Below are positions 46,426 through 61,598 of a stretch of DNA of 64,000 bases, in pieces. The stretch's first letter is position 1, and each line of letters starts with the position of its first letter. A model generated the notes under the pieces. The model saw only the letters and a program-made list of their open reading frames with translations, was not told where the DNA came from and made no database searches. Source of the DNA: an uncultured Alphaproteobacteria bacterium (lineage in GTDB: Bacteria; Pseudomonadota; Alphaproteobacteria; RF32; CAG-239); contig CASZWJ010000004.1 of NCBI GenBank assembly GCA_949493535.1, forward strand, positions 38,877-102,876. Reading direction: 5' to 3'. The position numbers and the translations under genes were made by a program.

Positions 46426-47445
46426 ATGAAACTTAAATTTTGGGTTGTCCTGTTATTTTGTATTTTTGCCGTCAGACAAGCAGAAGCCGCTGATACCGGT
46501 TTTCGTTACATTAATACCCGAGGCACGGTGCGTTGCGGTTCGGAACTGCAAAGCAACACTTATGCTTATAAGGATGAAGCCGGATATTGGCGCGGCATTG
46601 ACGCTGATTTGTGCCGGCTTTTTTCAATCGCCGTTTTCGGACGTTCAGACCGTTTTGAACTGGTTGACGTCAAACCCTCGCAGGTCAACAAAGCCATTGC
46701 CACCAATAAAATAGACATCATGCTCGGCGATGCCCCCGGAACAGCCAGCCGCGACGTCAGCGGCAAAGCAACTCAGGCAGAGCTGATGTATTATGCCCGC
46801 CAGATGTTTCTGGCGCAAAAAATTGAAGGTGCGACCTCAATGGAAGCTTATAAAGGCAAGAAAGTCTGCGTGGTTACAAATTCAGAAGACTATTACAATC
46901 TGCAAGACTACAGCGACAAATATGACTTGGATTTGCAGCCGCTGTTTTTTGCCGACAGGGTGCGTGCTAAAGAGGCTTTCCTGCTCAAGCGCTGCGATTT
47001 GTTTACCGGCAATGAGATTTATCTGAAAAGCGTTTATGACCAGGTGAACAATGACAATATGAACCTCGTCTTGCTGCCGGAAGTGATTGCCGACAAGCCG
47101 ATTTATGCGCAGGTCCTCAAAGACAACCAGAAGCTTCGCATTGCCATTAAATGGATTATGAACGCTGTTACTTTGGCTGAAAAGAAAGGGATCAACTCCA
47201 AAAATATTGATATTTTTATCGGCGTGAAAGACGGTTCAATCAAAAACCTTTTGGGTATTAATCCCGATTTGTGGAACAAGTTTCAGCTCAAACCGACTTG
47301 GGTCAAAACAGCCATTACCGAGCTTGGCAACTATGGCGAAATTTATGAAAAAAATCTCGGGTCTTTATCAAAATTTGAAATTGAACGCGGGCGCAACAAG
47401 CTGGTTGAAGACGGCGGACTGATTAAATCGCAATCTTTTTTCTAG
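46426..47445 (+). CDS. Amino-acid ABC transporter periplasmic substrate-binding protein (family 3; AapJ/BztA-like, about 340 aa)
   Basis: Signal peptide MKLKFWVVLLFCIFAVRQAEA. The protein is of type-3 SBP size and pattern (GIDADLCR...KIDIMLGD...). The ORF-track start at 46414 is a TTG. ATG 46426 is preferred as start. Confidence 0.6.
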   Translation: MKLKFWVVLLFCIFAVRQAEAADTGFRYINTRGTVRCGSELQSNTYAYKDEAGYWRGIDADLCRLFSIAVFGRSDRFELVDVKPSQVNKAIATNKIDIMLGDAPGTASRDVSGKATQAELMYYARQMFLAQKIEGATSMEAYKGKKVCVVTNSEDYYNLQDYSDKYDLDLQPLFFADRVRAKEAFLLKRCDLFTGNEIYLKSVYDQVNNDNMNLVLLPEVIADKPIYAQVLKDNQKLRIAIKWIMNAVTLAEKKGINSKNIDIFIGVKDGSIKNLLGINPDLWNKFQLKPTWVKTAITELGNYGEIYEKNLGSLSKFEIERGRNKLVEDGGLIKSQSFF

Positions 47446-48142
47446 CAGGCTTTTTGCCTAAAATAAAATCGGCGGCGGCGGCAAGCCCCTCTTCCGAAAT
47501 GCGGTGCTGTCCGTTTTCAATGACTTTTGTTTCAACATTGCAGCCGATTTTTTCCAAATTCTTTTGAGTAAAATCCAATGCTTCAAAGCGGACAAGATTA
47601 TCGCCGTTGCCATGTATCAACAACGCGTCCGGCGTTGAATGCCAATGTTTCTGCAAAAAACTGTGCGATGCCAATATGCCGCTGAAGCTGACAACGCCGC
47701 CGATTTTATTTTCGCGCATTAAGGCGGTATAAAGCGCCAGCATTGCCCCTTGCGAAAAACCGCAAAGATACAAATTTTTGTCTTCCAGCTGATATTCGTT
47801 CAGGCAATTGTCAATATATTCGTCAAGATATGTTCGGGCTTCTTCCAAACCCAGCGCCATTTTATCATAAATGGCAACGCATTCGTCCATTGTCGCAACC
47901 GTCTTGCGTTCATCATTCGGGTCAAAGCGGTGCATAGAATACCATTGGCGCTTGTCTTCCAAAACCTCGCAAGAAATCGGCGCCTGCGGCAAATGGATTG
48001 CCGTATTGTCAAAGCGGCAGATAAAATCTTTGAGAGTATTGTTCAGGTAATCTGCGTTATCAATATAGCCATGCAGAAAGATAATCAAACGCTGCGGTAC
48101 GCCGTTGACATGGACAATTTCTTCATTAATCGTATTCAGCAT
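47423..48142 (-). CDS. Alpha/beta-hydrolase of the phospholipase/carboxylesterase family
   Basis: 239 aa with the nucleophile elbow LYLCGFSQGAMLALYTAL (GxSxG) and an Asp/His-containing C-terminal part (LIHGNGDNLV...). It is convergent with the SBP gene and overlaps it by 23 nt. Confidence 0.75.
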   Translation of the reverse strand: MLNTINEEIVHVNGVPQRLIIFLHGYIDNADYLNNTLKDFICRFDNTAIHLPQAPISCEVLEDKRQWYSMHRFDPNDERKTVATMDECVAIYDKMALGLEEARTYLDEYIDNCLNEYQLEDKNLYLCGFSQGAMLALYTALMRENKIGGVVSFSGILASHSFLQKHWHSTPDALLIHGNGDNLVRFEALDFTQKNLEKIGCNVETKVIENGQHRISEEGLAAAADFILGKKPARKKIAI

Positions 48143-48296
48143 TGCTTTTTCCGTTACAGAGAATCGCTTTCGTTTGGAATATAGTCCCGATTGGCTAAAT
48201 AAAAAGTAAACATACTTTCAAAAAATTAAACTTTTGCAAGGATTAATATTGCCAAATAATTTATTTCAATTAGTCTGTTTATATGGAGAAAAAGTG

Positions 48297-48689
48297 ATGA
48301 GAAAAATATTTATGATATTGCTTTTAATTGTACTGGGTGCTTGCCAAGCAACGGCTGAACAAGAACAAAGATTTGTCAATCCGTTGTTTTATAAAACGAT
48401 GGAACCGGTTTCAACCATGGCATGGCGGACAAAAATTACGCCGACTTCTGTGGTTCGTGACAATAAGGGTACAGTTTTAGAGCAAAAATGTACCCTTGTC
48501 GAAAACACCATGGAAGCTGTCACGCTTAACTGCGAAGGCGCTTACGAAAAAGAAATCCGAACCTTATACCGCTTTGTCCTTAAAGGAAATAACGGCAGAG
48601 GAATGATTATATATATGCACGATAAATATCCACGTGAAGAGATATTCTCCAATCAGGAAACGTTCATTATTTATGAATATAATCAATAG
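48297..48689 (+). CDS. Small secreted protein/lipoprotein, paralog 1 (130 aa)
   Basis: GGAGAAAAAGTG RBS. Signal peptide MRKIFMILLLIVLGAC, with a possible lipobox. The mature N-terminus QATAEQEQRFVNPLFYKTMEPVSTMAWRTKITPTS... is near-identical at the DNA level to paralog 2. Confidence 0.5.
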   Translation: MRKIFMILLLIVLGACQATAEQEQRFVNPLFYKTMEPVSTMAWRTKITPTSVVRDNKGTVLEQKCTLVENTMEAVTLNCEGAYEKEIRTLYRFVLKGNNGRGMIIYMHDKYPREEIFSNQETFIIYEYNQ

Positions 48690-48742
48690 TCTAATCTTCT
48701 GATTTTACGGATTTCATCTTCTGTTTATACGGAGAAAAAGTG

Positions 48743-49132
48743 ATGAAAAAAATATTTACATTCATATCCTTAATATTACTCAACTGTTGCCATGCAACGG
48801 CTGAACAAGAACAAAGATTTGTCAATCCGTTGTTTTATAAAACGATGGAACCGGTTTCAACCATGGCATGGCGGACAAAAATTACGCCGACTTCTCTAGT
48901 TAGTGACAACAAGGGTACAGTTTTAGAGCAAAAATGCACCCTTGCCGAAAACACTATGGACACAGTCACGCTTGATTGCGAAGGCGCTTACGAAAAAGAA
49001 AAAAGAACCTTATACCGTATTGTCTCGCAAAAAAGAGATTCTGATGGGATTTTTATTGTTATATATTTTAAATCTCCCATAGAAGAAGAATATATTTCTC
49101 AAGATACATTTTTTATTTATGATAATCCTTAA
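48743..49132 (+). CDS. Small secreted protein, paralog 2 (129 aa)
   Basis: It has the same leader, RBS and first about 60 mature residues as paralog 1 (ATAEQEQRFVNPLFYKTMEPVSTMAWRTKITPTS). The C-terminal third diverges. Confidence 0.5.
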   Translation: MKKIFTFISLILLNCCHATAEQEQRFVNPLFYKTMEPVSTMAWRTKITPTSLVSDNKGTVLEQKCTLAENTMDTVTLDCEGAYEKEKRTLYRIVSQKRDSDGIFIVIYFKSPIEEEYISQDTFFIYDNP

Positions 49133-49830
49133 TAATTCAGCCTTTTGATTTTGCGGATTTCATCTTCAGCCCATTGGTTGCGTTTTATACCAACCTGGTA
49201 TCTATGTACATTATCTAATATTCCTTTAATGCTGCGCTTAGCAATAGCCTTATGTAAATTTGGCCAATTTATTGGCAAGACATTGCCGGTGTTATATTTG
49301 ATATCCAGTAAAACATTTTGCAGTTCCGGCGGAAAACGGTCAAAATCTTTAAACGTGTCCCGCAGTTCTTTCAAATCATTATTCACATGCATGTCATATA
49401 ACCGTCGTATTTCTTCATCGGCAATGCGCAGCGGCGTTTTATCCTCATAATAATCGGCTTTATAATTATTTCCTTCCATTTCGTGTAAAACATTTCGATA
49501 TTTAACAGCATCATCGGGACGAATCCTCCGTTTCTGCTCATCCATCCACTCCATGCTTCTGAATTTGTCTTCATCATCAATATTGATGCCGGCACCGATT
49601 GTAATTTTGCCCACACTGTCTTTATAGGGAAAATTTTTATTTCCTTCATGAGCTTTAATTATCGGATACATTCTTTCGCGAATCTCATGGTCAGGATCCG
49701 CCGCTTGCGCGGCGGTCCTTGACGGCGTGTTAAAAAATCCGGCGGATGCGTCAGGATTCTCGTTTTCTTTCTGCCGGCGCATTTTTTCCATCGGGTCTTC
49801 CTGAGTAATATAACGAATCAAGTTAGCCAT
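49129..49830 (-). CDS. Phage lysozyme-family protein (GH24 / T4-lysozyme-like catalytic region), last gene of the phage block
   Basis: IKAHEGNKNFPYKDSVGKITIGAGINID matches the GH24 pattern (E-G-x-x-L-x-A-Y-x-D-x-x-G-x-x-T-I-G-x-G) including the catalytic Glu. 233 aa with N- and C-terminal extensions. Confidence 0.5.
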   Translation of the reverse strand: MANLIRYITQEDPMEKMRRQKENENPDASAGFFNTPSRTAAQAADPDHEIRERMYPIIKAHEGNKNFPYKDSVGKITIGAGINIDDEDKFRSMEWMDEQKRRIRPDDAVKYRNVLHEMEGNNYKADYYEDKTPLRIADEEIRRLYDMHVNNDLKELRDTFKDFDRFPPELQNVLLDIKYNTGNVLPINWPNLHKAIAKRSIKGILDNVHRYQVGIKRNQWAEDEIRKIKRLNY

Positions 49831-49847
49831 ATTTCTTCTCCTCCTGT

Positions 49848-50045
49848 TTAATTTTCTTTAGGATATTTTGCTTTGATATCCTGCCATTTTTCTATCAGGT
49901 CTATCAGTTCATACGGCAAGTCGCCGCCGGCCTGAAGCACAAAGTCAAAAGCTTTCAAGATTGTATCCAACTGGTCGCCGACCGGCAGATATTTGTTGTA
50001 GGCGCGTTGTCTTTTTTCACGATAAGTCATTTTGGTTCTAGGCAT
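49848..50045 (-). CDS. Hypothetical phage protein (65 aa)
   Basis: Small ORF within the phage block. No recognised domain. Confidence 0.35.
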   Translation of the reverse strand: MPRTKMTYREKRQRAYNKYLPVGDQLDTILKAFDFVLQAGGDLPYELIDLIEKWQDIKAKYPKEN

Positions 50046-50056
50046 TTTATTTCTCC

Positions 50057-50452
50057 TTATTTGATTATTTTTCCGGTGGTTGAGATGACAGACGACAATA
50101 AATTGCGGTTGCCGCTGCGGCGCAGGTTTTCGTATTCCTGCTGATATTTGAAATTATTTTCGGCAATGTCTTCATAAGCTTCTTTAGCCATTCGCTGTTC
50201 GACGGCGGCTGCCGATTTGCTCGATGTGATGCCTATGGCGCCCAATCCAGCGCGGCGGTTTGCCAATTGCGTTTCAAGCAGATTTTTCCTCTTTTGGGCC
50301 GAGGCTTGGCGATTTGCTTCCATATATTTCATTCTTTGTTTATCAGCGGAAGCATTGTTCATCAGATTCATTGCCGTCATACCGACCGAAGCGGCCGTTG
50401 CCAGACTAATTCCTCCCATTTGTTTTCTCCTAATCTTTGGTTTTGATTTCAT
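50057..50452 (-). CDS. Hypothetical phage protein (131 aa; basic N-terminus, Ala/Gln-rich)
   Basis: It lies directly downstream of the tail tubular B-like gene, overlapping it by 23 nt. Possibly a minimal internal virion protein, assigned by position only. Confidence 0.35.
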   Translation of the reverse strand: MKSKPKIRRKQMGGISLATAASVGMTAMNLMNNASADKQRMKYMEANRQASAQKRKNLLETQLANRRAGLGAIGITSSKSAAAVEQRMAKEAYEDIAENNFKYQQEYENLRRSGNRNLLSSVISTTGKIIK

Positions 50453-52328
50453 TTACTGCCGAAAGCAGCGTAAAGGCGCAAGGCACCTCGCTTTTGATGC
50501 TCCACATCGGTTTTTCCAAATCTCTTATCCAACCGATAGAACGCAACTCAACGTCTCCGTTAAAAATTGTCGGAGGCGAATCCAAAATCTGATTGCGATA
50601 CATCTTTTTCAGCGGCACTTCAAAATAGCCGCTGCCAAAATCAAGTTTCAGCGACTTTGAAGCTATAATGCGAAACAACCCGTAGACCACACGGTAAGCT
50701 TTCGGCGGGAACGGACGCATAGCATCATTCATAAACGGCAGCGGTTCGATAATATGTTCATACGGCAGCCCGACCATAATTTCAGAGGCTTCTTCATTCA
50801 GCGTGATTTTGCCGTCAATAACGGGAAAAGAACCGACGGTAAATTCATCGGCGACAACCATCACTTCTTTGCCTTCCAAATAGTCAAGCCCGCTCCATTC
50901 CGCCTGAGGTTCTTCCGCTGTAAATCTTTTTCCGCAGTCTACAAAAAAGGCTTCGTCAAAAGTCTCCAAAAAGAAACTTTCTCCGCGTTTGACCACAAAA
51001 TAAATATCGTCGCCGATAACCGCCGTAGACATAAATTCTCCGGCAGTCTTAAGCCGGCTCCAGGCATTGACTTCTTCCGTCCGGTAAGTTGTCAGGCAGG
51101 AAACGCTCCCGTCTTCCAAAACAATGTATAAAACGCTCTCGTCCTGATAATAAACCGTGTCTTTCGGACTGCTGATAATGCCGCTTGAAAGCAAGGTTAA
51201 ATCTTTGGCCTGATAGGCCTGTTCGACATCGGCATATAAAAATTCGCGCAATTGTTTGCCACTTTGCGAAATAAATGTCGTGGCACCGTCAATATTCTGC
51301 GGCGGCAAGGTATAACGCGCATAGCTGCCGATGTTGGTTTGGCGGTTCAGCCTGATGCTTGACGGCGTGAGCGGTTCGCCCGAAACCATCCATTCGGCAC
51401 CGGTGGTAAAAACCAACAGATGTCTGGTGGAAACAACGCTGGTAATGGCATTAACCTGATCAGACAAAATGGCAAAATCTATCGCTTCGTCATCTTTGCC
51501 GGTTCCGATGTCAAAGTTGAACAAATCCGACGATTTTGACAGCCACATGCGGTTCGGCAGGCTTTTTGAACCGCCGATAACCATACGGTCCTGATGAAAG
51601 GTTACCGCATTCGGATACCCGCGTAAGGCCGAAAAAGCCTGCTCCTCCCAATCTGTCGTTCCGCCGTTGCCGGAAAGGTTTTTGTTAACCGTCGCATTGC
51701 ATTTGGCCGGCGAAGCAACGGAAGTTATTGTCACCTGACCGCCGTTTATGCGCAAACGGATCCCGACATAAGCCGAAGTAAAAATCTCTTTATCTGCGGT
51801 TAAAGTAATGTTGCCGGAGGTTCCGCTCGGCGTCAGTTTCGTTTTATGTTGGTAAAAATTAAAATACGGGCAAAAAACCTGCCCGCCTGACGTATAGTAT
51901 TCCCATTCTCCGATTTGCCATTCTTCATTGGCATTGCGGCTGATTTGGCGCGGAGCCACATCAGGATGCACAATAAGCAACGTGTCGGCACTCTGCGTCC
52001 AGTTGATGTTTTTAAGCTGTGCCAAAGTCCACGGCGTTTCCAATGAAGCAATCGCTTCGCCGTTTTTATAAACCGTCATTGTTTGATTAAGCAGGCATAG
52101 CAAATAAGTTTGTTCGGTATTAAATTCAAAAGCAATCAGGCGGGCCGATGACGGCAATTCATCAATAAAACGCAGGCCGCTGCGTCTCGAAACGCCGCCG
52201 GTCGGGTGAATTATGACATTTTGCAGCGTTTTGGCGCCGTTTTCAAAAATCCGCAAATCGCCGCGCCCGAATAAATTGGCCGAAACCTGACCGGCCGTAA
52301 AATTGCTTTTGACACAAATTTGACTCAT
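50430..52328 (-). CDS. Tail tubular protein B-like (T7 gp12-like), 632 aa
   Basis: Its position follows the gp11-like gene. The segment DFAILSDQVNAITSVVSTRHLLVFTTGAEWMVSGEPLTPSSIRL parallels T7 gp12 VSTNRIAILKYAVPFSEELLIWSDEAQFVLTASGTLTSKSVEL. Size class and beta-rich composition are consistent. Confidence 0.5.
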   Translation of the reverse strand: MSQICVKSNFTAGQVSANLFGRGDLRIFENGAKTLQNVIIHPTGGVSRRSGLRFIDELPSSARLIAFEFNTEQTYLLCLLNQTMTVYKNGEAIASLETPWTLAQLKNINWTQSADTLLIVHPDVAPRQISRNANEEWQIGEWEYYTSGGQVFCPYFNFYQHKTKLTPSGTSGNITLTADKEIFTSAYVGIRLRINGGQVTITSVASPAKCNATVNKNLSGNGGTTDWEEQAFSALRGYPNAVTFHQDRMVIGGSKSLPNRMWLSKSSDLFNFDIGTGKDDEAIDFAILSDQVNAITSVVSTRHLLVFTTGAEWMVSGEPLTPSSIRLNRQTNIGSYARYTLPPQNIDGATTFISQSGKQLREFLYADVEQAYQAKDLTLLSSGIISSPKDTVYYQDESVLYIVLEDGSVSCLTTYRTEEVNAWSRLKTAGEFMSTAVIGDDIYFVVKRGESFFLETFDEAFFVDCGKRFTAEEPQAEWSGLDYLEGKEVMVVADEFTVGSFPVIDGKITLNEEASEIMVGLPYEHIIEPLPFMNDAMRPFPPKAYRVVYGLFRIIASKSLKLDFGSGYFEVPLKKMYRNQILDSPPTIFNGDVELRSIGWIRDLEKPMWSIKSEVPCAFTLLSAVNEIKTKD

Positions 52329-52894
52329 TGCCTGACCTCCACCAAACTGAAATCTTCAAAACAAGACGGGGTGGATTGCTGCGCGTCAATCGAACGGGCG
52401 CGGCTGATTGAAGCTTCTGCCAATTTATTTAAAAACTCCGCGCGGCTTGAAGATTCCGTCAACGGAATACAAAATTCAAAAGCAAGTTTATTTATCAGCG
52501 CTTCACAGAAATAAGCCGGAAAAATATTTTCATCCGGCCGGTATATATAAGTCAGATTGATTCCGTTCAAGTTGGTATGCAGGCGGTCTTCCACAATGCG
52601 GTATTCAATGCCGCGCCCTTTTGAACCGAAACCAGCCGAAACAATCCGCAAAAAATCATTCGGCAGCTGATATGCAAAATCATAATCCGCCAAAGGGCAT
52701 GTCTCCAAACGCGGCAATTTTGCCTGAGCTACGGCAAAACTCCAAGGATAAGCGGAAAGCAGCCCGTCACGGATACAGGGGTAAAGGTTTGCCGCAACTT
52801 CGGCTTCGGCAGTCCCTTCTTCAAAAGATGTAATGGTAGAGGCTCCGATTTTGAGCAGAGCTTTGGAGCATAAGCTTATGCTGGTATAGGTCAT
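52325..52894 (-). CDS. Tail tubular protein A-like (T7 gp11-like), about 190 aa
   Basis: AGGAGA RBS 9 nt before ATG 52894. MTYTSISLCSKALLKIGASTITSFEEGTAEAEVAANLYPCIRDGLLSAYPWSF parallels the T7 gp11 N-terminus ([48 protein letters not shown]). The length matches gp11 (196 aa). Confidence 0.5.
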   Translation of the reverse strand: MTYTSISLCSKALLKIGASTITSFEEGTAEAEVAANLYPCIRDGLLSAYPWSFAVAQAKLPRLETCPLADYDFAYQLPNDFLRIVSAGFGSKGRGIEYRIVEDRLHTNLNGINLTYIYRPDENIFPAYFCEALINKLAFEFCIPLTESSSRAEFLNKLAEASISRARSIDAQQSTPSCFEDFSLVEVRQ

Positions 52895-52910
52895 GAGGTG
52901 TTTCTCCTGA

Positions 52911-52939
52911 TAAAAAAGGGAGCCTGAAAACAGGCTCCC
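52911..52939 (-). terminator. Rho-independent terminator inside the structural module, one small gene after the capsid gene (analogous position to T7 Tphi)
   Basis: On the minus strand the hairpin GGGAGCCTG-TTTT-CAGGCTCCC is followed by TTTTTTAT. Confidence 0.5.
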
Positions 52940-52972
52940 CCTCATTTGCCAATAGATGTACGGGTTAAAAAC

Positions 52973-53236
52973 TTATGCGGCAGGCGTATATGGAGCAATA
53001 ACCGCAACGGTGACGCTCTCGGAAGATACGCTGCTGACAGACAAAATTGCGGGCTGCGGCGCGTTTGCCGTATCTGCATTTACCAAAACCATATCTCCGG
53101 GTCTGGCAAACGGCGCAATTTCATTAAAATAACCGTCGGCTTTGACCGCGGCCAATTCGTCTTCGGTCGTGTAGTTCCACAGGGTGAAACCGTTGGCATA
53201 AGCCATTACGCTGAAATTTTTAGAATTATATGACAT
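52973..53236 (-). CDS. Hypothetical small phage protein (87 aa) following the capsid gene
   Basis: AAAGGA RBS before ATG 53236. MSYNSKNFSVMAYANGFTLWNYTTEDELAAVKADGYFNEIAPFARPGDMVLVNADTANAPQPAILSV... Possibly a minor capsid or decoration protein, assigned by position only. Confidence 0.35.
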   Translation of the reverse strand: MSYNSKNFSVMAYANGFTLWNYTTEDELAAVKADGYFNEIAPFARPGDMVLVNADTANAPQPAILSVSSVSSESVTVAVIAPYTPAA

Positions 53237-53264
53237 TCTTTTTTTTCCTTTCTTAAATATTGAA

Positions 53265-54089
53265 TTAAGCTTCTTTGCATTTGATGCGGACAACGCCGGT
53301 CTCGTCAATCAGGCAGGCGCCCTGGCTCATCATGTTATTGACGAAGTGGGCGGCATGGTCGCCGTGCCAGGTGATGTCTGACTTGACATCCTGTCCGGAA
53401 GCGTGGCCGACGGCCGTTTTATGGAAGATGAAGCAGTCGCGGTTGGTGCCGTTCAAAGGCAATCCGGTGTGCATAATCCAGTTAATGCCCAGCCATTTGC
53501 GGCTCTCAGTGCCTTTCAAAAACGGCAGGTTGTCGCCGGCATAGTCAGAACTTGAAAATTCAGGGATATTCAGCAGCGCATTCCACTGCAACGGGCCGAC
53601 AATGCCAAAACGCTGGCCGTCATCAGGAACATCTTTTTCATTAAGTTTGGCAAAAGCGTTCAAAATATCAGCTTTAGCCAAAGCTTTGCCATAATCGCCG
53701 ACATCATTGCCGTCAGACGCTTTGTTCAAAGCGCCGATAATCAATTCGTCGGTTTTGCGGCCCAAGGCGTAAGCGCCGGCGGAAGCAATCACGCGGCGTT
53801 CGTCAATGCTCATTTTGAGTTCATCCAAAGCATCGACCCAATCGCCGGCATAATAATCCTGCAGCTCGCATTCGACCGGAGAATGGTCTACGCTCATTAC
53901 CGGAACCAAACCATGGCGGGCTTTGCCGGAGGCGATGCCTTTGCCGACTTTTTGGAAAACGGTTGAAGAACCGATGACATCGTTCTTAAAACGGACGGTG
54001 TTTTTTAATTTAGAGCCCATTTGCTGATAAGCCAAATGGACATCTGCTTCAAAGTTTTTAATAAAAGACTTGCTGACTTGTGTTGTCAT
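53265..54089 (-). CDS. Major capsid protein, T7 gp10-like (274 aa)
   Basis: Its position follows the scaffold gene. The C-terminal region AAHFVNNMMSQGACLIDETGVVRIKCKEA resembles the T7 gp10 C-terminus (AKYAMGHGGLRPEAAGAVVFKVE). The composition is typical of HK97-fold podovirus capsids. Confidence 0.55.
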   Translation of the reverse strand: MTTQVSKSFIKNFEADVHLAYQQMGSKLKNTVRFKNDVIGSSTVFQKVGKGIASGKARHGLVPVMSVDHSPVECELQDYYAGDWVDALDELKMSIDERRVIASAGAYALGRKTDELIIGALNKASDGNDVGDYGKALAKADILNAFAKLNEKDVPDDGQRFGIVGPLQWNALLNIPEFSSSDYAGDNLPFLKGTESRKWLGINWIMHTGLPLNGTNRDCFIFHKTAVGHASGQDVKSDITWHGDHAAHFVNNMMSQGACLIDETGVVRIKCKEA

Positions 54090-54131
54090 AATTTATTACT
54101 CCTGATTAGTGATTATATATAAATTCTGTGG

Positions 54132-54842
54132 TTATTTTTCGGGATAAAGCTTTTCAAAGCCGCGGGTGATTTTGGCAATGTAAGCGCTGTCTTTGTCTCT
54201 CCAATATCTGGGGTCTTCCATCATCTTGCGCAGAGATGCTTCGCTCAGATTTTCAACCGCGCCGCCTTCTTTGCTCAAAGACGGTTCGGAAGAAGACATC
54301 ATGTTATACAAAGCAATAACGCCCTCTGCCGTCGAGCCAAGCGCATCATAAACTTCGGGGTTGACATTTTGTTTCGCCCAAGCAGAAATCTGGCGCGAGA
54401 CTTCATTAAACTTATCTCTGCCGCCAAAATGCCGGCTCAGTTTTTCCAATTGGCGTTCCGCTTCAAAATTGACGCCCATTTCGCCCAAAACAGGCAAAAC
54501 CCTTTCGCCGGCCAAGTCATAAACGAGCTGCGCCTGTTCATTAGTGAAACGCTTTTCATAAAACTTTTTCAAAATATCGTCATCAACGTCCAGCAGCGGC
54601 GACGGCGACTTGATTTGATATTTGTCATAGCTTTCGGGAATATTGCGCAGATTAGTTTCAACGAGATTGTCGTCTCTGGCAGCCAAATCGTTGTATGCCC
54701 GAACTAATTCCTCCAGCTTTACCTGTCCTGTTTTTTCATCCAAGAACTGTTCCGGCAAAGCTTTCGGATATTTGGCAAAGCTGCTCTCTGTTGAACCGGC
54801 TGAAGATGCTTCAACCAGATTTTTTTCTTTTTGTAATTCCAT
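54132..54842 (-). CDS. Putative scaffolding protein (236 aa, acidic, helical)
   Basis: It is located between the portal and capsid genes as in T7 (gp9). It is highly charged and helical (...KLEELVRAYNDLAARDDNLVETNLRNIPESYDKYQ...). Confidence 0.45.
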   Translation of the reverse strand: MELQKEKNLVEASSAGSTESSFAKYPKALPEQFLDEKTGQVKLEELVRAYNDLAARDDNLVETNLRNIPESYDKYQIKSPSPLLDVDDDILKKFYEKRFTNEQAQLVYDLAGERVLPVLGEMGVNFEAERQLEKLSRHFGGRDKFNEVSRQISAWAKQNVNPEVYDALGSTAEGVIALYNMMSSSEPSLSKEGGAVENLSEASLRKMMEDPRYWRDKDSAYIAKITRGFEKLYPEK

Positions 54843-54862
54843 TATTTATCCTTTCTAAAAAA

Positions 54863-55096
54863 TTATGATTGCCGTCCGCCGAGCTTTTCTATCAGCTTGA
54901 CTAAATGTCTCTGCCCTTCTAAGTGGCGCAATTCGTCACTTGAGGCATCAGGACCCAAATAACGCTCAACGGTCAAACGGCGCAAAAAAGAGAGGACAAC
55001 CATGCCCTCTCCGGTTTTAAAGCACTTGGCAAACGCGGCGCGGATTTCCTCATCGCCCATTTGCTCCGTGCAATAAATGTTACTATGCGGCGGCAT
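54863..55096 (-). CDS. Hypothetical small phage protein
   Basis: ORF partly overlapping the portal 3' end. Start uncertain. Confidence 0.25.
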   Translation of the reverse strand: MPPHSNIYCTEQMGDEEIRAAFAKCFKTGEGMVVLSFLRRLTVERYLGPDASSDELRHLEGQRHLVKLIEKLGGRQS

Positions 55097-56618
55097 TGTC
55101 AGAAGCTCCGTCGCCGAGTTCAGGCAATTCCAAATCAAGCGGCTGCTCGTTAATCAGTTTGGCCGGTACATTTAAAATTTGCCCGATTGTTTTGGCAGCC
55201 TCAAACATATTGACTGCTGCCATGGCACCGATACCCATTCCGGAAACAATGCCGACCCATTCGGAAATATTGCCGACATCTGCTTTGGCCTGAAGCATGG
55301 CCAGAGGAGATTTGTATTGCAAATCGACAATCTTGCCGTCTAAGTCAAAATTCAGGATATCGCCGCGGCGGCGCAAAATATGAAAAGCCCTTTTCAAAAG
55401 CGGCGTCAGCAATTCTGACTGCAAACGCCCGAAACTGGCGCCCAAAATCCGCGCAATTTCTGCCGAACGTTCCAAAACTTCGGTTGCCGTCATGTTCGGC
55501 GTTTCAACCTGAGACAAGCGGTCTGCCAATAAAGAATGGTTAATCCGCTTTTGCAGGTTTTCCAAAATAAGTTGAGAAACATCAAATTTACCCGGAGATT
55601 CCAGAGGCGTCAGCCCTTTGGAGCCGACAGCCTTCGGGATAATAGCTCCCGGAACCAGTTTGATATTGGCCGGATTTAAAATGCCGTCATCATCGGCCTG
55701 CCAAATGCCTGTCACCGAAATTGACGCGTTTTTCAAAATCAGTTCCACAACCTTGTTGGCCGTTTTGATATCCGGCAGCGCTTTCATGACCGGCGACCGC
55801 CCGTAAACTTCTCCCGGCGCTTTCAGCCAGCGGAAATTAATAAACGGCGACGTATCAAAAATGCCTTCCTTGACAACCAGATTTTCTTCGATGCCGGCAT
55901 TTTCATCCCAAACGAAAGCCGTATATTCATAACCGGCAGCGCCGAATTTGCCGTGTCTGGGCATAACGGCTTCAATCAAACTCAAACGAAAATCGCTGTC
56001 ATTTTTTGCCCTTTCCTGCCAGATCTCGGGAATTTCAACCTCAGGAAAACGCAAGCCGATTGCTTCCAATCGGATTTCCGAACGGCGAAAAGTCGTATCC
56101 AAACGCCCGTCAGCGCTTTCTTCCAGCGCAATTTCCCGCAGAGGAACCGCGTAAAAGCGAAAGGCAGAGCTTTCCCCAAGCGGCGCTTCTTCAAACATAA
56201 GGCAGGCTGTTCCCGCCGTTACCAAATCCAGATAACATTGGTGAATCTCAACCGCAAAATTAGAATGTTCAAAATTTTGAAGCATGATTTCTGATGTTTT
56301 CTCCAAGGTATCAGCTACTTGGCTCCGCTCTTCCGAAGTCAGTTCAGAACCTGCCTTTAAGCCGAACCATTTGGCCCAAGGCGGCGTCAGTTCCGCCAAA
56401 AGCGATGAGGCCAGCTGATCGACGGCATCGGGCGCGGTTCCGTCAAAAAGGTGAATATTCTTTTTTGAACCGCAATTTTCCGATACCTGCATTGAACAGG
56501 CATTTTCACGCTGCGGCAGCGCATATTCATAACACTCCTGCCAATGCGGTTCCCATTGCCGGCGCCGTTCTTCCGCTTTTTTATAACGTTCGATAAGTTT
56601 TTCGATTTTGTTGTCCAT
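55083..56618 (-). CDS. Portal (head-to-tail connector) protein, T7 gp8-like (511 aa)
   Basis: APGEVYGRSPVMKALPDIKT parallels T7 gp8 LDGESYGRSYIEEYLGDLRS. The size of 511 aa against 536 for T7 gp8, the acidic C-terminus and the position before the scaffold gene fit the assignment. Confidence 0.6.
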   Translation of the reverse strand: MDNKIEKLIERYKKAEERRRQWEPHWQECYEYALPQRENACSMQVSENCGSKKNIHLFDGTAPDAVDQLASSLLAELTPPWAKWFGLKAGSELTSEERSQVADTLEKTSEIMLQNFEHSNFAVEIHQCYLDLVTAGTACLMFEEAPLGESSAFRFYAVPLREIALEESADGRLDTTFRRSEIRLEAIGLRFPEVEIPEIWQERAKNDSDFRLSLIEAVMPRHGKFGAAGYEYTAFVWDENAGIEENLVVKEGIFDTSPFINFRWLKAPGEVYGRSPVMKALPDIKTANKVVELILKNASISVTGIWQADDDGILNPANIKLVPGAIIPKAVGSKGLTPLESPGKFDVSQLILENLQKRINHSLLADRLSQVETPNMTATEVLERSAEIARILGASFGRLQSELLTPLLKRAFHILRRRGDILNFDLDGKIVDLQYKSPLAMLQAKADVGNISEWVGIVSGMGIGAMAAVNMFEAAKTIGQILNVPAKLINEQPLDLELPELGDGASDNAAA

Positions 56619-56621
56619 TAA

Positions 56622-56828
56622 TTATTCTCCAAGCAGTTTTTTGCGCTTCAAATCCATATTTTGCGGATCCAGAATTCCGGTATAAGATGTGCGTATCGTG
56701 CTGTCCAAACCGCGGCGCTGCCGTTCCAGAGCCTTCTGGCGCTCGGCTTCGGCGTTTCTTTCCGCCTCTGCTGCCGTATCGACTTTGCTGACTTCTATTT
56801 TCGGGGTTCCGCTGAATACTTTTCCCAT
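56622..56828 (-). CDS. Hypothetical small phage protein (68 aa)
   Basis: It lies between the holin-like gene and the portal gene. Charged helical peptide. Confidence 0.3.
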   Translation of the reverse strand: MGKVFSGTPKIEVSKVDTAAEAERNAEAERQKALERQRRGLDSTIRTSYTGILDPQNMDLKRKKLLGE

Positions 56829-56870
56829 TTGTTTTCTCCTAAAAAAAAGCCCTTGTTTCCAAGGGCTGCG

Positions 56871-57416
56871 TTAAAAAATTTTGTTGACTGTTTTTGAAAA
56901 GATGTCTTCGCCTTTTTTGCTTTGTTTTTCCTGAGAGCGTTTGACAACCTGAACGCCAAGGACGCCCAGAGCAATACTCCACAAAGAGGTGGTTTCGACC
57001 AGCGATGCGATTATTTCTGTTACATTCGGATAATCGGCAATAATCACATAACAAACCGTTGAGATTGTCAGCAGCCAGGCCAAAGCCACGGAATATCCGA
57101 AAGCCGGACGCCAAAAACGAACAAAACGGTCTTCGGAAGCCAATTCCTGCCTTATTGTTTCATTAATCGTGCTTAATGTTTTGGCATCAAATTCGTTTTC
57201 AACCTCCTGTGTTTTTTCGGCATGGCGGTTGGCTTCTTTCAACGCTTCTACCGATATTTCGCCCTGTTTTATGGCATCGCTCACTTCAAACAAAGCCGAA
57301 CCTGCCTTTTTTGCGGCATCATTATCAAGTTTGTTCAATGACGAACTGACAAACTTTACTAAAATAGGCAGTCCTATTTTTCCCAGAACTTTGCTTATCA
57401 TTTTTTCATTCCTCAA
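56871..57416 (-). CDS. Putative holin (181 aa; soluble N-terminal domain plus two C-terminal TM helices)
   Basis: TM segments FGYSVALAWLLTISTVCYVIIA and LWSIALGVLGVQVV lie at the C-terminus. The gene is immediately downstream of, and overlapping, the endolysin gene. Confidence 0.4.
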   Translation of the reverse strand: MRNEKMISKVLGKIGLPILVKFVSSSLNKLDNDAAKKAGSALFEVSDAIKQGEISVEALKEANRHAEKTQEVENEFDAKTLSTINETIRQELASEDRFVRFWRPAFGYSVALAWLLTISTVCYVIIADYPNVTEIIASLVETTSLWSIALGVLGVQVVKRSQEKQSKKGEDIFSKTVNKIF

Positions 57417-57825
57417 TGTCGTTATAGAAAAAATGACTGCCGATTTCGGCGCAGGGGATTTTGCCTACGGACCATTTAGGACGCAGCTTTTTGACATGAT
57501 AATGCGTTGCGCCGCCGGTTCGGTCTTCCAGCAATCCGGCAGCCGCGCGGCGGGCAATCCGCTTACAGGTTGCAAATACCGGATTATCTTCATTTGCCTT
57601 CAACAAAATCCTGTAGTTGGGGTCATCCATATTCCAACAAGAAAACTGGTACGGTTTTTGGCAAACCTCGGCAATATTGTTTCCCCACCAGTAATGCCCG
57701 TATTTTCTGCTGAAGGCAACACGGTTTATAACCACCGAAGCAACAGCTTCCTGGCCTGAAAGAGGTTCGCCTCTGGCTTCGCCGAAAATGGTTTTGGCCA
57801 GAATATCAATTGTTAAATCGCTCAT
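57406..57825 (-). CDS. Endolysin, SleB/CwlJ-type cell-wall hydrolase (Hydrolase_2 family)
   Basis: LAKTIFGEARGEPLSGQEAVASVVINRV...YGHYWWG...YQFSCWN matches the SleB-like hydrolase signature (ARGE...INR...QFSxWN). 139 aa. Confidence 0.65.
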   Translation of the reverse strand: MSDLTIDILAKTIFGEARGEPLSGQEAVASVVINRVAFSRKYGHYWWGNNIAEVCQKPYQFSCWNMDDPNYRILLKANEDNPVFATCKRIARRAAAGLLEDRTGGATHYHVKKLRPKWSVGKIPCAEIGSHFFYNDIEE

Positions 57826-58109
57826 CTGTTTTTTCCTACTTCATCAAGTTTTTTCTCAATCCGCAGCAGATGATTGGTTAACCGGCTCTCAACATCTTTG
57901 AGATAGTTCACCGACACATAGTTGCGGGCGACATGGAGTTTGAAATCAGCCAAAGCATCTTTCAAATCCAATATTTGTTGTTCCTGCGCGGCTTTAGCCT
58001 GCTCTAATTCGGCATCTGCCTCCTTTTTGTTGCGCAGCACCATTCGAAACAAGGCGGCAAAAGCCGGCAGTTCGACCATGGCCACCCAGGTCGTTATTTC
58101 ATTAAACAT
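57822..58109 (-). CDS. Small membrane/coiled-coil lysis-associated protein (i-spanin- or antiholin-like)
   Basis: N-terminal hydrophobic segment WVAMVELPAFAALFRMVL followed by about 65 aa of coiled coil. It overlaps the endolysin start by 4 nt. Confidence 0.35.
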   Translation of the reverse strand: MFNEITTWVAMVELPAFAALFRMVLRNKKEADAELEQAKAAQEQQILDLKDALADFKLHVARNYVSVNYLKDVESRLTNHLLRIEKKLDEVGKNR

Positions 58110-58121
58110 TGTTAAAATTCC

Positions 58122-59624
58122 TTATTCTATTTCAAAGCCGGTTTGAGCATTGAACTGGCGAGAGCTTCCCTGCCAGCTGTTCATCCTGGCCTTGCCGCCG
58201 TCAACAGCAAAAACAGGCAGCCGAACAGGCTCAGCAGCCAAACAGCCGGCAACAGCGTCAAGAGCATCGTCATGATGAGAGCCTTCAACGCTAAATTCGC
58301 GCATTTCTTCAATGAACGGCGTCGTCCAGATTTTCTGATGTACATTTAAAGCCCTTTCAGCCAGCAAAACCTCAAAAGCGGACAATATCCGCGCAGCTTT
58401 GCCGGCAGTTGAATACATTTCTAAAACCGCAACCCTGAGATTGCGGCGTTTAAGCGCTTGTTTCAAAATCCCCGGCAAAAATTTGCCGATGCCGTTTGCT
58501 TCAATCCGGACGGCATTCAGATAATTGCGTTCCAGAAAAGCGATCACTTTTTCGCACTGGGCGGAAGCGGCATTATCACAGCTTTCATGGCCAAGCCTGA
58601 TATATTCCAAATCATGCAGCCAATAATGCCCCTCCTCATCGGTAAACACGCAGGCAATCACCGAGTTATCTCCTTTTTGAGACGCAAAAGACGGATCCCA
58701 CCAACAAGAAGCCGCCACCATTTTTTTATCGCCGATTTTTAAGAACTCGCGATTATTGGCCGCGCTTAAAACGATTTCTTCGTTATACGTCCTGAGACGA
58801 GACGGATCCAAGATGCTGTCGCAAAAATTGACCGGTTGCAGCATCATTTGCGACAAGAACTTATTTTCGCCCGAACGAGCGCGAATCGAAGCAATTTTTT
58901 CAATACTGAAACGTTCCGGCCAATTTGAATTTCCGTTTTTATCAAGCACCGGAAGCTCCAGTTTCTTGAAGCCGCGTAAAAAAGGCTCGGTTTCAGGCTT
59001 TGATTTTTCAGTCTCCGTTTGATAAATCGTATAAAAATTATGCGGTGTTCCGATATATAACTGCATTCCCTGCGGGGTGAGAATGTAATCAAGCTCATTG
59101 AGCTTTTCCCGCAGTTCCTGTCTCTTTAACGGCGTATCGCAGTTTTTAGGCACTTCAACGTCATCACAAATTATCAAATCAGCTCTCAAGCCGGTTATGT
59201 TGGCGCCGATGCCTTTTGCCAGCATCGACGGATCTCTTAATTCCTGAGGGCGGACAACCGTAAACTGCCCCGAAGCCCATTGATCCTGCTTTTGTGGTTT
59301 CAAATGCTTCGCAAGCGGATGCTGCTCAATTATCCTTTTGACATTGCGCACCATTTTCTTGGCCAATGCATGATCTGCTGCCATTACCAAAATCCGCAAA
59401 GAGGGATTATCATACAAAGCCCATGCGCAAAACAGCCCGACAATCGTCGATTTTCCCGAATTGCGAAAGGCCATCAGCAAGCCCTGCCTGTCTGACGGTT
59501 TCGCATAAAGTTTTGACAACCAACGCAACATCTTGTTTTGATGCCGCGGAATTTTCATTCCCTGAAGGCGAAACCAAACATATACAAATTCAAAAAAGCC
59601 GACGCCCCAAAGCGTCTGCTTCAT
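58122..59624 (-). CDS. Terminase large subunit (500 aa)
   Basis: Walker A LMAFRNSGKSTIVG and Walker B-like LVMAADHA. A C-terminal nuclease-domain acidic residue (...IICDDVEV...) is present. The size is that of T7-like TerL (gp19-class). Confidence 0.65.
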   Translation of the reverse strand: MKQTLWGVGFFEFVYVWFRLQGMKIPRHQNKMLRWLSKLYAKPSDRQGLLMAFRNSGKSTIVGLFCAWALYDNPSLRILVMAADHALAKKMVRNVKRIIEQHPLAKHLKPQKQDQWASGQFTVVRPQELRDPSMLAKGIGANITGLRADLIICDDVEVPKNCDTPLKRQELREKLNELDYILTPQGMQLYIGTPHNFYTIYQTETEKSKPETEPFLRGFKKLELPVLDKNGNSNWPERFSIEKIASIRARSGENKFLSQMMLQPVNFCDSILDPSRLRTYNEEIVLSAANNREFLKIGDKKMVAASCWWDPSFASQKGDNSVIACVFTDEEGHYWLHDLEYIRLGHESCDNAASAQCEKVIAFLERNYLNAVRIEANGIGKFLPGILKQALKRRNLRVAVLEMYSTAGKAARILSAFEVLLAERALNVHQKIWTTPFIEEMREFSVEGSHHDDALDAVAGCLAAEPVRLPVFAVDGGKARMNSWQGSSRQFNAQTGFEIE

Positions 59625-59935
59625 TCTTCATCCTCCGGCAAATCTTCTGCCTGAGCTTCTGCCAAAAGCTGCTGCATCGACGTCAGCTCCGCCGAATTAT
59701 CCTCAGCAGGCAGCAATTCGTCTTCTGTCCAGCGCGCAAGCTTTAGCAGAGTTTCGGCATGAATAACCGCCGATTTGCAGGCGGTATGATGCGCGCTGAA
59801 CCCTTTGGCATCAACCGGAGCCGGCTGTTCCGAAAAATCTTCATAGCTTTGTATCACCTCAGATATTTTCTGTGGCAGCGTTTTTTTCAAATTCTTTTTC
59901 AAAGCCTGAAGAGTTTTTATTTTTTTGACTGGCAT
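59621..59935 (-). CDS. Putative terminase small subunit / packaging protein (104 aa)
   Basis: It is immediately upstream of TerL with ATGA overlap. Basic N-terminus (MPVKKIKTLQALKKNLKK) and acidic C-terminus. Assigned by position and size only. Confidence 0.3.
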   Translation of the reverse strand: MPVKKIKTLQALKKNLKKTLPQKISEVIQSYEDFSEQPAPVDAKGFSAHHTACKSAVIHAETLLKLARWTEDELLPAEDNSAELTSMQQLLAEAQAEDLPEDEE

Positions 59936-60028
59936 TTAATAAAACTCCATAAAAAAAAGTCCAACCGCTGGCTGAACTTTTAACTTTTTTTGGATACACT
60001 ACTGGCAAGTGATAGAATCATCTATAAA

Positions 60029-60469
60029 TTAAAAAAAATCATTTGTCAAGACTTTTTTCCTACAATTCTGAGTAATTGTTAAATATTTATACAATTTATA
60101 TGGCGTGGCTATGCATACGTCATGGATTCCAAGCACCCTTTTAACAAATTCAACGCAGGTAAACGGCGCCAAAGGCGCTGCCTTGAGAGGCGCTTGTCGG
60201 AACTTTACCGGAATAACTTTAATATTTTCTTTCTTTTTCAAATGATAAATATAATCAAAATTCAAAGGATTGGCGTGCACAAAAAAACATATCTGATTAG
60301 ACATCGGATTAATTTCAAGCCACTGCTCTTTCTCCCCCGAGAGTTTCAGCAGCAAATAACAATGCCGGAAACCCTTTTTTAGAAAACGAAGCCACCAAAG
60401 GTTTGTTTCATGCTCAAAGACAACATATCCATTGCCAAAATATTTTTCATTAAACATAGAATCATACAT
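60029..60469 (-). CDS. Hypothetical early phage protein (146 aa; His...Cys arrangement compatible with a permuted papain-like fold, speculative)
   Basis: GFRHCYLLL and PFTCVEFVKRVLGI resemble the His and Cys boxes of NlpC/P60-type peptidases in permuted order. No firm family assignment. Confidence 0.3.
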   Translation of the reverse strand: MYDSMFNEKYFGNGYVVFEHETNLWWLRFLKKGFRHCYLLLKLSGEKEQWLEINPMSNQICFFVHANPLNFDYIYHLKKKENIKVIPVKFRQAPLKAAPLAPFTCVEFVKRVLGIHDVCIATPYKLYKYLTITQNCRKKVLTNDFF

Positions 60470-60481
60470 TAGGTTTTCCTT

Positions 60482-60808
60482 TTATAGAATTTCCTTATAT
60501 TTCAAATACACGTCAAAGTTGCGCATTGCTTCTTCCCATAGGCGTATTTCACTACGTTTCGCGCGTTTGTCATACCAAGGAGAAACTTGCTTTTCTCCCC
60601 ATTCCGTCATCACACGCAAATGCCTGTTTGTTAAATGGTGATTCTTCTTCATATTCTTTACTATTCCATAGATATCCGATATTTCACAATTTCTTAATTT
60701 TCCCCAATAATCGCTTTTTGAACGCAGTCCTCCGCGTGCCGATAAGCTGTTGCAGAACCAAAACCAGACTTCTTCTGCGCTGTTAAACGGTTCATAATCT
60801 TCCCTCAT
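60482..60808 (-). CDS. Hypothetical early phage protein (108 aa), first gene of the leftward operon
   Basis: GGGAGA RBS 5 nt before ATG 60808. It is Trp-rich (EEVWFWF...). LTNRHLRVMTEWG resembles a sigma70-region-4/LuxR-type HTH, weakly. Confidence 0.3.
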   Translation of the reverse strand: MREDYEPFNSAEEVWFWFCNSLSARGGLRSKSDYWGKLRNCEISDIYGIVKNMKKNHHLTNRHLRVMTEWGEKQVSPWYDKRAKRSEIRLWEEAMRNFDVYLKYKEIL

Positions 60809-60969
60809 ATTGTCTCCCTTAAAAACACACTACAATTAACCAAATGTTAACCATGTGAAATTTATATATAAAGTTGTAGGAATTTCAACACAAAAAAGAT
60901 TTGATTCCTAACAATAATTGTTTATAATAACACAAACACCTTTGAAACCCTAATTAAAGAGTAGCTAAA
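60809..60969. promoter_or_regulatory. Divergent intergenic switch region between the CI-like repressor and the early operon; contains direct TTAACCA repeats and inverted repeat AGGAAT...ATTCCT
   Basis: TTAACCAAATGTTAACCATG at 60834-60853 has two TTAACCA copies around a GTTAAC palindrome. AGGAAT at 60878-60883 and ATTCCT at 60904-60909 form an inverted repeat. Confidence 0.35.
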
Positions 60970-61590
60970 ATGAAATATGACACGATATGGAACTCTGTTG
61001 ATAAGTTAGCCCAAAGCAAAGGATTATCCCCTTCGGGGCTGGCTAAACTAGCCGGGCTGGACGCAACAACGTTTAATAAAAGCAAAAGAATTCGTCCGGA
61101 CGGAAAAAACAGATGGCCTTCCATGGATAGTGTCAACAAGCTTCTTGAAGTTTGCAATATTACTTTTGAGCAATTTTACAATATGGGAAACAGCGAGGAA
61201 GAATTTGAGGGGGGAACAATCCCCTTTATTAAGCTCTCACAATTAGGCTGCAATCCTAAAATTGAAGATAAATACTTAAAAACGGCCGGCTGGAATAAGA
61301 TTATTTTTCCTGATGCAAAAGACATTCTCTACGCAGCAGAAATTAATACTGACGAATATCTGCCGCTATACCGTCACGGTTCCACAGTTATACTATCTGC
61401 AAATTCAGATATACGCAAAGGCGACCGTGTTGCAATTTTTTTGAATGAAGACAAGCTACTCCTAAAAGAATTTATCCGCCGCACGCCGTCTCAACTGGTT
61501 ATAACCGATATTAACAATCCTGCCGAAGAAAAGATTATTGCCATTGCCGATGTCAAACTGATCAACCGCATTCTTTGGGCCAGCCAATAG
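60970..61590 (+). CDS. CI/LexA-type phage repressor (N-terminal XRE-family HTH plus C-terminal S24 peptidase domain)
   Basis: The HTH is IWNSVDKLAQSKGLSPSGLAKLAGLDATTFNKSK. The C-terminus GDRVAIFLNEDKLLLKEFIRRTPSQLVITDINNPAEEKII parallels lambda CI [37 protein letters not shown], including the catalytic Lys. YRHGSTVIL is the probable Ser region. Confidence 0.65.
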   Translation: MKYDTIWNSVDKLAQSKGLSPSGLAKLAGLDATTFNKSKRIRPDGKNRWPSMDSVNKLLEVCNITFEQFYNMGNSEEEFEGGTIPFIKLSQLGCNPKIEDKYLKTAGWNKIIFPDAKDILYAAEINTDEYLPLYRHGSTVILSANSDIRKGDRVAIFLNEDKLLLKEFIRRTPSQLVITDINNPAEEKIIAIADVKLINRILWASQ

Positions 61591-61598
61591 GAATAAAA

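Follow-up and report, generated by a model that had tools for sequence, protein, structure and literature searches.

The window analysed here comprises 64,000 nucleotides (nt) from an uncultured Alphaproteobacteria bacterium (contig CASZWJ010000004.1, positions 38,877 to 102,876) and carries two small secreted-protein genes in tandem, here called geneA and geneB, which lie tail to tail with a T4-lysozyme-like muramidase gene at the end of a podovirus-like block. A preliminary description of this DNA had read the two genes as copies that were duplicated and then diverged, and that had captured the 3′ end of the phage lysozyme gene. Our analysis showed that the duplication is real but has to be reinterpreted as a recombining array of allelic cassettes in a conserved muramidase and secreted-protein module. 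What is new here is that an unannotated family, most of whose members are lipoproteins, is convergent with a T4-lysozyme-like muramidase homologue in five unrelated contexts. From sequence and by analogy with Pim, TsiI2 and Spackle, we propose, with somewhat more confidence than doubt, that the small proteins are putative periplasmic immunity or inhibitor proteins for the adjoining muramidase.

Pairing of the small-protein genes with a muramidase gene

The muramidase gene (49129..49830, minus strand) encodes a T4-lysozyme-like (GH24/pesticin-like) protein of 233 amino acids, and this assignment was based on Pfam, PHROG, AlphaFold2 (AF2)/Foldseek and invariant residues. The protein matched PHROG endolysin families, while its match to Pfam Pesticin (PF16754; E=3.8e-4, 20.9 bits) stayed under the 25.8-bit gathering cutoff, hhalign against the plasmid-encoded Pst gave E=0.008 and a probability of 4.9%, and tblastn against 50,697 phage records returned no match. 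E62, D71 and T77 were invariant in 13-15 muramidase homologues, and their 9- and 6-residue spacing is that of E11, D20 and T26 in T4 lysozyme (T4L). The AF2 model had a predicted local distance difference test score (pLDDT) of 81 with residues 1-37 disordered, and the top 50 Foldseek matches in the PDB were all T4 lysozyme save one T4-lysozyme fusion-type entry (probability 1.00 and template modelling score 0.66 on the target for T4 lysozyme). Across lineages the muramidase retained only 54-61% identity, where the nozzle kept 81% and the capsid protein 92%, and its gene is the fastest-diverging one of the block.

GeneA and geneB belong to a hitherto undescribed family whose members are small and secreted and for the most part lipoproteins. 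GeneA (48297..48689, plus strand) encodes 130 amino acids, which comprise the signal peptide MRKIFMILLLIVLGAC, whose LGAC is lipobox-like, a conserved core that contains two Cys, and a C-terminal cassette A, and geneB (48743..49132, plus strand) encodes 129 amino acids with the signal peptide MKKIFTFISLILLNCC and a C-terminal cassette B. Both N-terminal signal peptides were read from the sequence, and both C-termini are charged and hydrophilic. Profile search of 1.84 billion representative proteins recovered 122 related clusters, most of them 100-200 amino acids long and 14 of double length (at least 240 amino acids). The family motif is E-E-K-F-V-N-P-x-F-Y...P.S...W.T.LTPT; in a 41-sequence alignment two Cys were invariant and the C-terminus was hypervariable. 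A lipobox-like Cys was found in 79 of the 122 remote relatives, and those inspected among the remainder (e.g. P0166, P0175) had signal peptides of signal peptidase I (SPase-I) type. A Pfam scan of the 41 relatives found nothing, sequence searches of the PDB with geneA and geneB found nothing significant, and tblastn of geneA found no match in 50,697 phage records or in 72,556 plasmid records. The AF2 model of geneA (pLDDT 72) was all-beta, with seven strands and one short helix after the signal peptide, and no specific structural neighbour of this model was found, the fold match being weak.

Scanning with hidden Markov models then showed this gene pair to be conserved across unrelated contexts: in every locus with a visible muramidase 3′ side a family member lies immediately 3′ of the muramidase homologue and convergent with it. 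The five independent contexts, in which the family member occurs in 1-4 copies or as a fused double domain, are the window clade; the viral contig L024, where the genes of the pair overlap; the viral contig L025; the chromosomal loci L028-L030 next to superoxide dismutase and flagellar genes, L028 having a tandem array of three copies and L029 a single copy and a fragment; and L033, where a single 256-amino-acid lipoprotein contains two fused family domains. Recovery worked in both directions, some loci being found via the small protein and others via the muramidase, and a muramidase-profile scan of IMG/VR (2.9 million viral contigs) gave only two matches, both of which also carry the small protein. 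Synteny with the muramidase was retained down to 27-35% identity. The muramidase domain of L025 forms a fusion with a Phage_Mu_F domain, and a neighbouring gene in L024 encodes a similar motif at the N-terminus, combined with a Tlde1 toxin domain. The same part of L024 (7509-9590) encodes the 282-amino-acid Tlde1-domain protein followed by a same-strand trio of paralogous genes for hydrophobic proteins of 114-125 amino acids, possibly another toxin and an immunity-like array, located beside the muramidase pair.

Structure and assembly of the tandem array

Repeat search and MAFFT alignment placed two head-to-tail units at 48274-49167 with a start-to-start period of 446 nt and zero indels, so the tandem units of about 450 bp in the preliminary description are borne out, and the copies are in register with a definable junction, as in a tandem segmental duplication. 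Unit 1 (48274..48721, plus strand) consists of leader, ribosome-binding site, geneA and a captured lysozyme 3′ fragment, and unit 2 (48720..49167, plus strand) of leader, ribosome-binding site and geneB, followed by the live lysozyme gene's 3′ end; each open reading frame (ORF) is preceded by a GGAG ribosome-binding site. With a slash at the boundary, the left edge of the array reads ...CAATTAGTC/TGTTTATAT, the boundary between the units ...CATCTTC/TGTTTATAC and the right edge ...CATCTTC/AGCCCATT. The junction itself is CATCTTC/TGTTTATA, in which the dinucleotide TC is common to both units (2-nt microhomology), and it joins a position 39 nt within the lysozyme gene to one 23 nt 5′ of the small-gene ATG.

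The 22-mer TGATTTT(A/G)CGGATTTCATCTTC occurs at 48700-48721 and 49146-49167 only, and none of 100 shuffled controls contained it even when up to 3 mismatches were permitted. Reverse-complemented, the second occurrence gives the EDEIRKI codons of the muramidase gene, whose protein ends in ...WAEDEIRKIKRLNY. Thus the 22-mer does end each unit and the junction does lie within the phage lysozyme gene, as had been claimed, but the captured piece is longer than first noted, with 12 codons and a stop. This orphan 3′ end of an A-haplotype lysozyme gene (48683..48721, minus strand; EDEIRKIRRLDY followed by the stop) is a complete, conservatively changed copy of the end of the neighbouring lysozyme (EDEIRKIKRLNY and stop). 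Its overlap with the geneA stop is 7 nt, just as for the intact gene in the related locus L010, and the geneB stop overlaps the lysozyme stop by 4 nt. Since the convergent genes overlap by 4-7 nt, any duplication of a whole small gene must carry muramidase sequence with it, so the capture is real but largely a by-product. A promoter-like site (TTTGCA-16-AATAAT; 48233..48260, plus strand) lies 5′ of unit 1 only, outside the repeat, which suggests that geneA and geneB form one operon; as promoter evidence the site is weak, such sites being no more numerous than expected from shuffled sequence. A hairpin with 14-nt arms (AAGGGTACAGTTTT / AAAAATGTACCCTT) is present in the conserved core of both copies (48465-48497 and 48911-48943).

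Identity between the units forms a mosaic along their length. It was 95% in the leader and ribosome-binding site, only 48% in the signal-peptide stretch (48313-48335), 100% over a 102-nt run (48348..48449, plus strand, identical to 48794-48895 of unit 2), 88% at 48459-48578, 52% in the C-terminal cassette (48579-48699) and 21/22 in the 22-mer. The earlier statement that the copies are near-identical and then diverge thus holds for the leader and the 102-nt run and fails for the signal peptide. Two sites have a base that is common to both window copies and absent from every other copy examined: 48370 G (K to R), inside the 102-nt tract, and 48341 T, 7 nt upstream of it.

The window is identical to the JGI contig Ga0209694_1000170. 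Among the gut Alphaproteobacteria loci L001-L023, every small-gene locus has the same order of esterase, 1-4 small genes, muramidase or its remnant, and block, and copy number varies: one in L008-L016, two in the window type (20 contigs, several samples) and in L022 (period 424 nt), and four in L001 (period about 395 nt). L016 belongs to the human-gut metagenome-assembled genome 'uncultured Alphaproteobacteria bacterium UMGS1426', whose contig was the sole match in each of the scans of genome contigs and of metagenome contigs; its single small gene (L016 9765-10235) seems frameshifted near the C-terminus relative to P0014, through pseudogene formation or assembly error. L022 is an independent array event with a shorter muramidase stub, RVIKNLDY. 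L010-L015 have an extra ORF between the esterase and the small gene (278-281 amino acids, Cys-rich; L010 4795-5631, L012 5117-5962) that had no match in any library, and the 281-amino-acid form was rejected as a double-domain relative of the small family (hhalign probability 0.7%). In L008 (10393-10625) and L009 (4562-4790) the muramidase gene is deleted save about 80 nt of its 3′ end, with unrelated sequence in its place, and the small gene is intact.

Comparison of these loci showed that cassettes A and B circulate as alleles in sister lineages. Cassette A directly abuts an intact muramidase gene in L010/L011, with the tail ...CAATAGTCTAATCTTCTGATTTTGCGGATTTCATCTTC giving the RRLDY-stop end seen in unit 1, and cassette B does so in L012-L015. 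Cassette A of the window is 98-99% identical to L010, and L012/L013 match the window at 97-100% from the core of copy 2 across cassette B into the muramidase gene, roughly two-thirds of which is included; cassette identity is thus 97-100% vs a lineage background of 85-90%. The sister genomes L008 and L009 carry cassette B and cassette A, respectively, with a different breakpoint, and signal-peptide types and C-terminal cassettes reassort between lineages, which means that the small-gene family is modular.

The sister strain L002 differs from the window at 72 sites in 12 kb, of which 48 fall in 49185-49672 and none in 46800-49184; 33 of them lie within 49185-49274. The encoded muramidases are 91% identical, with the C-terminal block LPIN...YQVGIK in the window and QKK...KDVSTE in L002, and L012/L013, a lineage with flanking DNA only about 88% identical to the window, carries exactly the window's allele (100% identity). 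Because the L002 differences start just past 49184 and the cassettes match sister lineages, the 22-mer and the next 17 nt (49146..49184, defined from L002 and other loci) are, on sequence comparison, a conserved hinge, which separates the small-gene cassettes from the variable muramidase C-terminal block and acts as an anchor of homologous exchange. These alignments show that homologous recombination exchanges cassettes as well as muramidase alleles, anchored in the conserved small-gene core and in the last, likewise conserved, codons of the muramidase gene. Upstream of cysS, L002 (1-3821) has glycine-rich (Gly_rich_2, ALK_LTK_GRD) and small unknown genes and the window strain has MatE and sulfatase genes.

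Building the array needs at least three events, here listed in no implied order: one illegitimate join at the TC microhomology, which the junction sequence shows; at least one homologous exchange; and homogenisation of the 5′ core, which would account for the 102 identical nt and the two window-only shared bases. The 102-nt tract itself is likely the product of gene conversion or a retained duplicate core. A recent in situ duplication followed by rapid divergence of the copies, with function left open, was the original reading, and the exact 446-nt period without indel, the identical run and the shared bases at 48341 and 48370 all agree with it. Its sequel of divergence fails, because 52% identity between cassettes is far too low next to 102 identical nt, and the divergent halves are older alleles, each single-copy beside the lysozyme elsewhere (A with its RRLDY-stop tail in L010/L011, B in L012-L015) at 97-100% identity vs an 88% background; we consider the reading improbable. 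The locus is a clear natural example of how such a putative immunity array is built, by illegitimate join, cassette swaps at a hinge and gene conversion within the array.

The phage-like block and its terminal slot

The muramidase gene is the terminal gene of the podovirus-like block, the rest of which (49848..61853, minus strand; library scans with Pfam and PHROGs) encodes 65- and 120-amino-acid proteins, nozzle, tail tubular A, capsid, scaffold, portal, holin, a Hydrolase_2 lysin and the large terminase, with an S24 repressor gene at 60970-61590 (plus strand). Leftward of the slot are host genes for a carboxylesterase (47423..48142, minus strand; left flank of the slot), a substrate-binding protein and MlaC, then gltX and cysS, and the ORF after the block (62339-63994, minus strand) encodes a host-type YhdP protein. 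Within the block, holin and Hydrolase_2 form a separate lysis cassette 7 kb from the muramidase gene, so the muramidase is not needed as endolysin.

The tie between the small genes and the phage element that had been claimed from the window was borne out by two more distant relatives. L020 has an empty site between rpsU and the esterase and lacks the block, the muramidase gene and any small gene, and in L018 the block is present while the slot holds a gene for a 198-amino-acid outer-membrane protein (OMP) beta-barrel (OMP_b-brl/Opacity; L018 8258-8854; also L019 3977-4573, again a more distant lineage) rather than the muramidase and small genes. Neither type of gene is therefore host core; both are accessory cargo of the block end.

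The block (49129-61853) spans only about 13 kb, in which we recognised neither an integrase gene nor genes for replication or a tail fibre. Its position is the same in every lineage but the one with the empty site, no att-like direct repeat of at least 11 nt was found at its ends, and no tRNA adjoins it. Over three levels of relatedness the block diverges in step with the host (capsid 97/92/92%, nozzle 95/81/74%, gltX 96.5/92.6/84.5%), and among isolated phages those closest to it are Pelagibacter podophages, whose nozzle is about 30% identical. The block may be a domesticated podovirus-like element resembling a gene transfer agent (GTA).

Proposed function and comparison with known systems

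We regard immunity as the most likely function of the small proteins because the pairing with the muramidase recurs in unrelated genomes. The mature small protein would bind and inhibit the muramidase in the periplasm, and it would give immunity against muramidase arriving from outside, carried by phage-like particles or freed by lysing neighbours; several diverged copies would widen the protection to several muramidase variants. Further findings that point the same way are the arrays of 1-4 copies, in which internal copies are trailed by orphan 3′ stubs of the muramidase gene (window, L022), the small gene retained intact where the muramidase is deleted (L008, L009), the fast muramidase divergence with its C-terminal block swapped within one strain background, the export signals, the conserved pairing and the separate holin and Hydrolase_2 cassette. 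The Phage_Mu_F fusion in L025 and the Tlde1 neighbour in L024 add a toxin logic, which fits that of phage-borne polymorphic toxins (PMC5576092).

Several results weigh against this proposal. The muramidase has no signal peptide and no recognised route into the periplasm of another cell. GeneA and geneB have no match in Pfam, PHROGs, NCBIfam or PADLOC, their structural model is only moderate in quality, and homology to Pim was rejected by hhalign (A5), with a probability of 0.08%. The same cassette B stands beside two muramidase C-terminal alleles (window and L002), so co-variation is not strict, and the pairing count covers five contexts, with the genomic context of the 122 remote relatives outside it.

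Each of the other explanations is less supported than immunity. One of them, part of which the preliminary description had listed among candidate roles, is a Cor/Llp-like lipoprotein for superinfection exclusion or receptor masking that would act on an outer-membrane receptor, the adjacency to the lysozyme being merely moron placement. The position at the block end, convergent with late genes and with its own promoter-like site, and the many lipoproteins in the family agree with this, as does the OMP beta-barrel gene in the L018 slot, a classical moron type. Yet the pairing with the muramidase extends beyond this phage, to unrelated phages and to a chromosomal locus that is not of phage type, which makes receptor masking less likely than inhibition of the adjoining lysozyme; in some lineages an SPase-I signal has taken the place of the lipobox, which speaks against a function that requires membrane anchoring, and no PHROG match to any Sie family was obtained. 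We therefore hold this role to be unlikely.

A lysis accessory protein, spanin-like or a lysis regulator, that acts with the muramidase at host lysis has a similarly low probability. Its attraction is a small lipoprotein with a predicted beta-rich periplasmic domain encoded beside a muralytic enzyme, but the small gene is always on the strand opposite the muramidase gene and persists where the muramidase is deleted, the C-terminus is hypervariable, the genes form multi-copy arrays, and the block has its own lysis cassette. Assignment as an o-spanin or u-spanin was rejected, the gene being convergent in all loci, the lysis cassette elsewhere, the C-terminus charged and hydrophilic without a transmembrane segment, and a partner i-spanin absent. 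Neutral hitch-hiking of a fast-evolving ORFan without particular function, duplicated by chance at a recombination hotspot, would suit the lack of a known domain and the weak fold match, but there is little likelihood of it given ORFs intact in all copies examined (at least 20 contigs), a motif and two Cys conserved in the 41 aligned sequences drawn from the 122 clusters, and muramidase synteny that survives at such low identity.

If the immunity proposal is true, the small proteins constitute a new family of lysozyme inhibitors or immunity proteins, over 120 sequence clusters in size and so far unannotated, and the locus adds a phage-borne peptidoglycan-targeting toxin-immunity pair to the plasmid-borne Pst/Pim and the TssI2/TsiI2 pair from type VI secretion (T6SS). 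Such inhibitors would also be relevant to engineered lysins and to pesticin-lysozyme hybrids against Gram-negative bacteria. A far-reaching and rather doubtful extension is that the approximately 13-kb block is a domesticated, vertically inherited particle-maker (GTA-like or tailocin-like) that would deliver the muramidase as a toxin, with the array as its immunity bank, in other words a phage-derived interbacterial weapon with polymorphic cassettes in gut Alphaproteobacteria.

Among known inhibitors, Ivy, MliC/PliC, PliI and PliG are small periplasmic or lipoprotein lysozyme inhibitors, mostly of beta-sheet (PMC7677548), and the proteins described here resemble them in being small, putatively periplasmic or lipoprotein, and predicted to be rich in beta-sheet; no profile or fold match to these four groups was obtained. 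T4 Spackle is a phage-encoded periplasmic disulfide protein that inhibits the virion-borne gp5 lysozyme and not the endolysin (PMC7677548), and the block likewise has a separate endolysin. Unlike Spackle, an alpha-helical bundle of 75 amino acids (PMC7677548), the small protein is predicted to be all-beta, so that membership in the Spackle group was rejected on the model.

A matching arrangement is that of Pst/Pim on the Yersinia pestis plasmid pPCP1, where pim (4385-4780, plus strand; 131 amino acids) and pst (4815-5888, minus strand) are convergent and 34 nt apart. Both systems set a T4-lysozyme-like muramidase gene 3′-to-3′ with a gene for a protein of about 130 amino acids. Pim is periplasmic and specific for its own enzyme, giving no protection against a Pst-T4L chimera (PMC3390615). 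The differences are that the muramidase here is under the Pfam Pesticin cutoff and has no receptor-binding or translocation domain, that the immunity candidates here are in arrays, and that the carrier is a phage-like block instead of a bacteriocin plasmid.

TsiI2 of Vibrio fluvialis is a 127-amino-acid periplasmic immunity protein for the pesticin-domain effector TssI2 (PMC9620997), and both TssI2-TsiI2 and VgrG3cp of V. cholerae combine a muramidase whose toxicity is exerted in the periplasm with a Sec-exported immunity protein that is encoded beside it and binds it (PMC9620997, PMC9927483). The effector and immunity clusters of T6SS vary between strains (PMC9620997, PMC9927483). In contrast to these pairs, no T6SS genes were seen near any locus here, and tsiI2 is described just as downstream of and adjacent to tssI2 (PMC9620997), a comparison by description, whereas the genes here are convergent.

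The last group is that of the contact-dependent inhibition (CDI)/Rhs and MuF polymorphic toxins, the MuF toxins being those of temperate phages (PMC5576092), a paper in which a term search turned up neither lysozyme nor pesticin nor peptidoglycan. The window muramidase has a variable C-terminal block and, at its N-terminus, a disordered stretch of 37 residues, the MuF domain being present in L025 only. The array differs from these systems in that its stubs are only 8-12 codons long and its candidate immunity genes are on the opposite strand. It shares with them an array layout, in which putative immunity genes are followed by 3′ stubs of the putative toxin gene, and a recombination that displaces cassettes at a conserved junction, and L025 carries a MuF fusion of the same muramidase domain.

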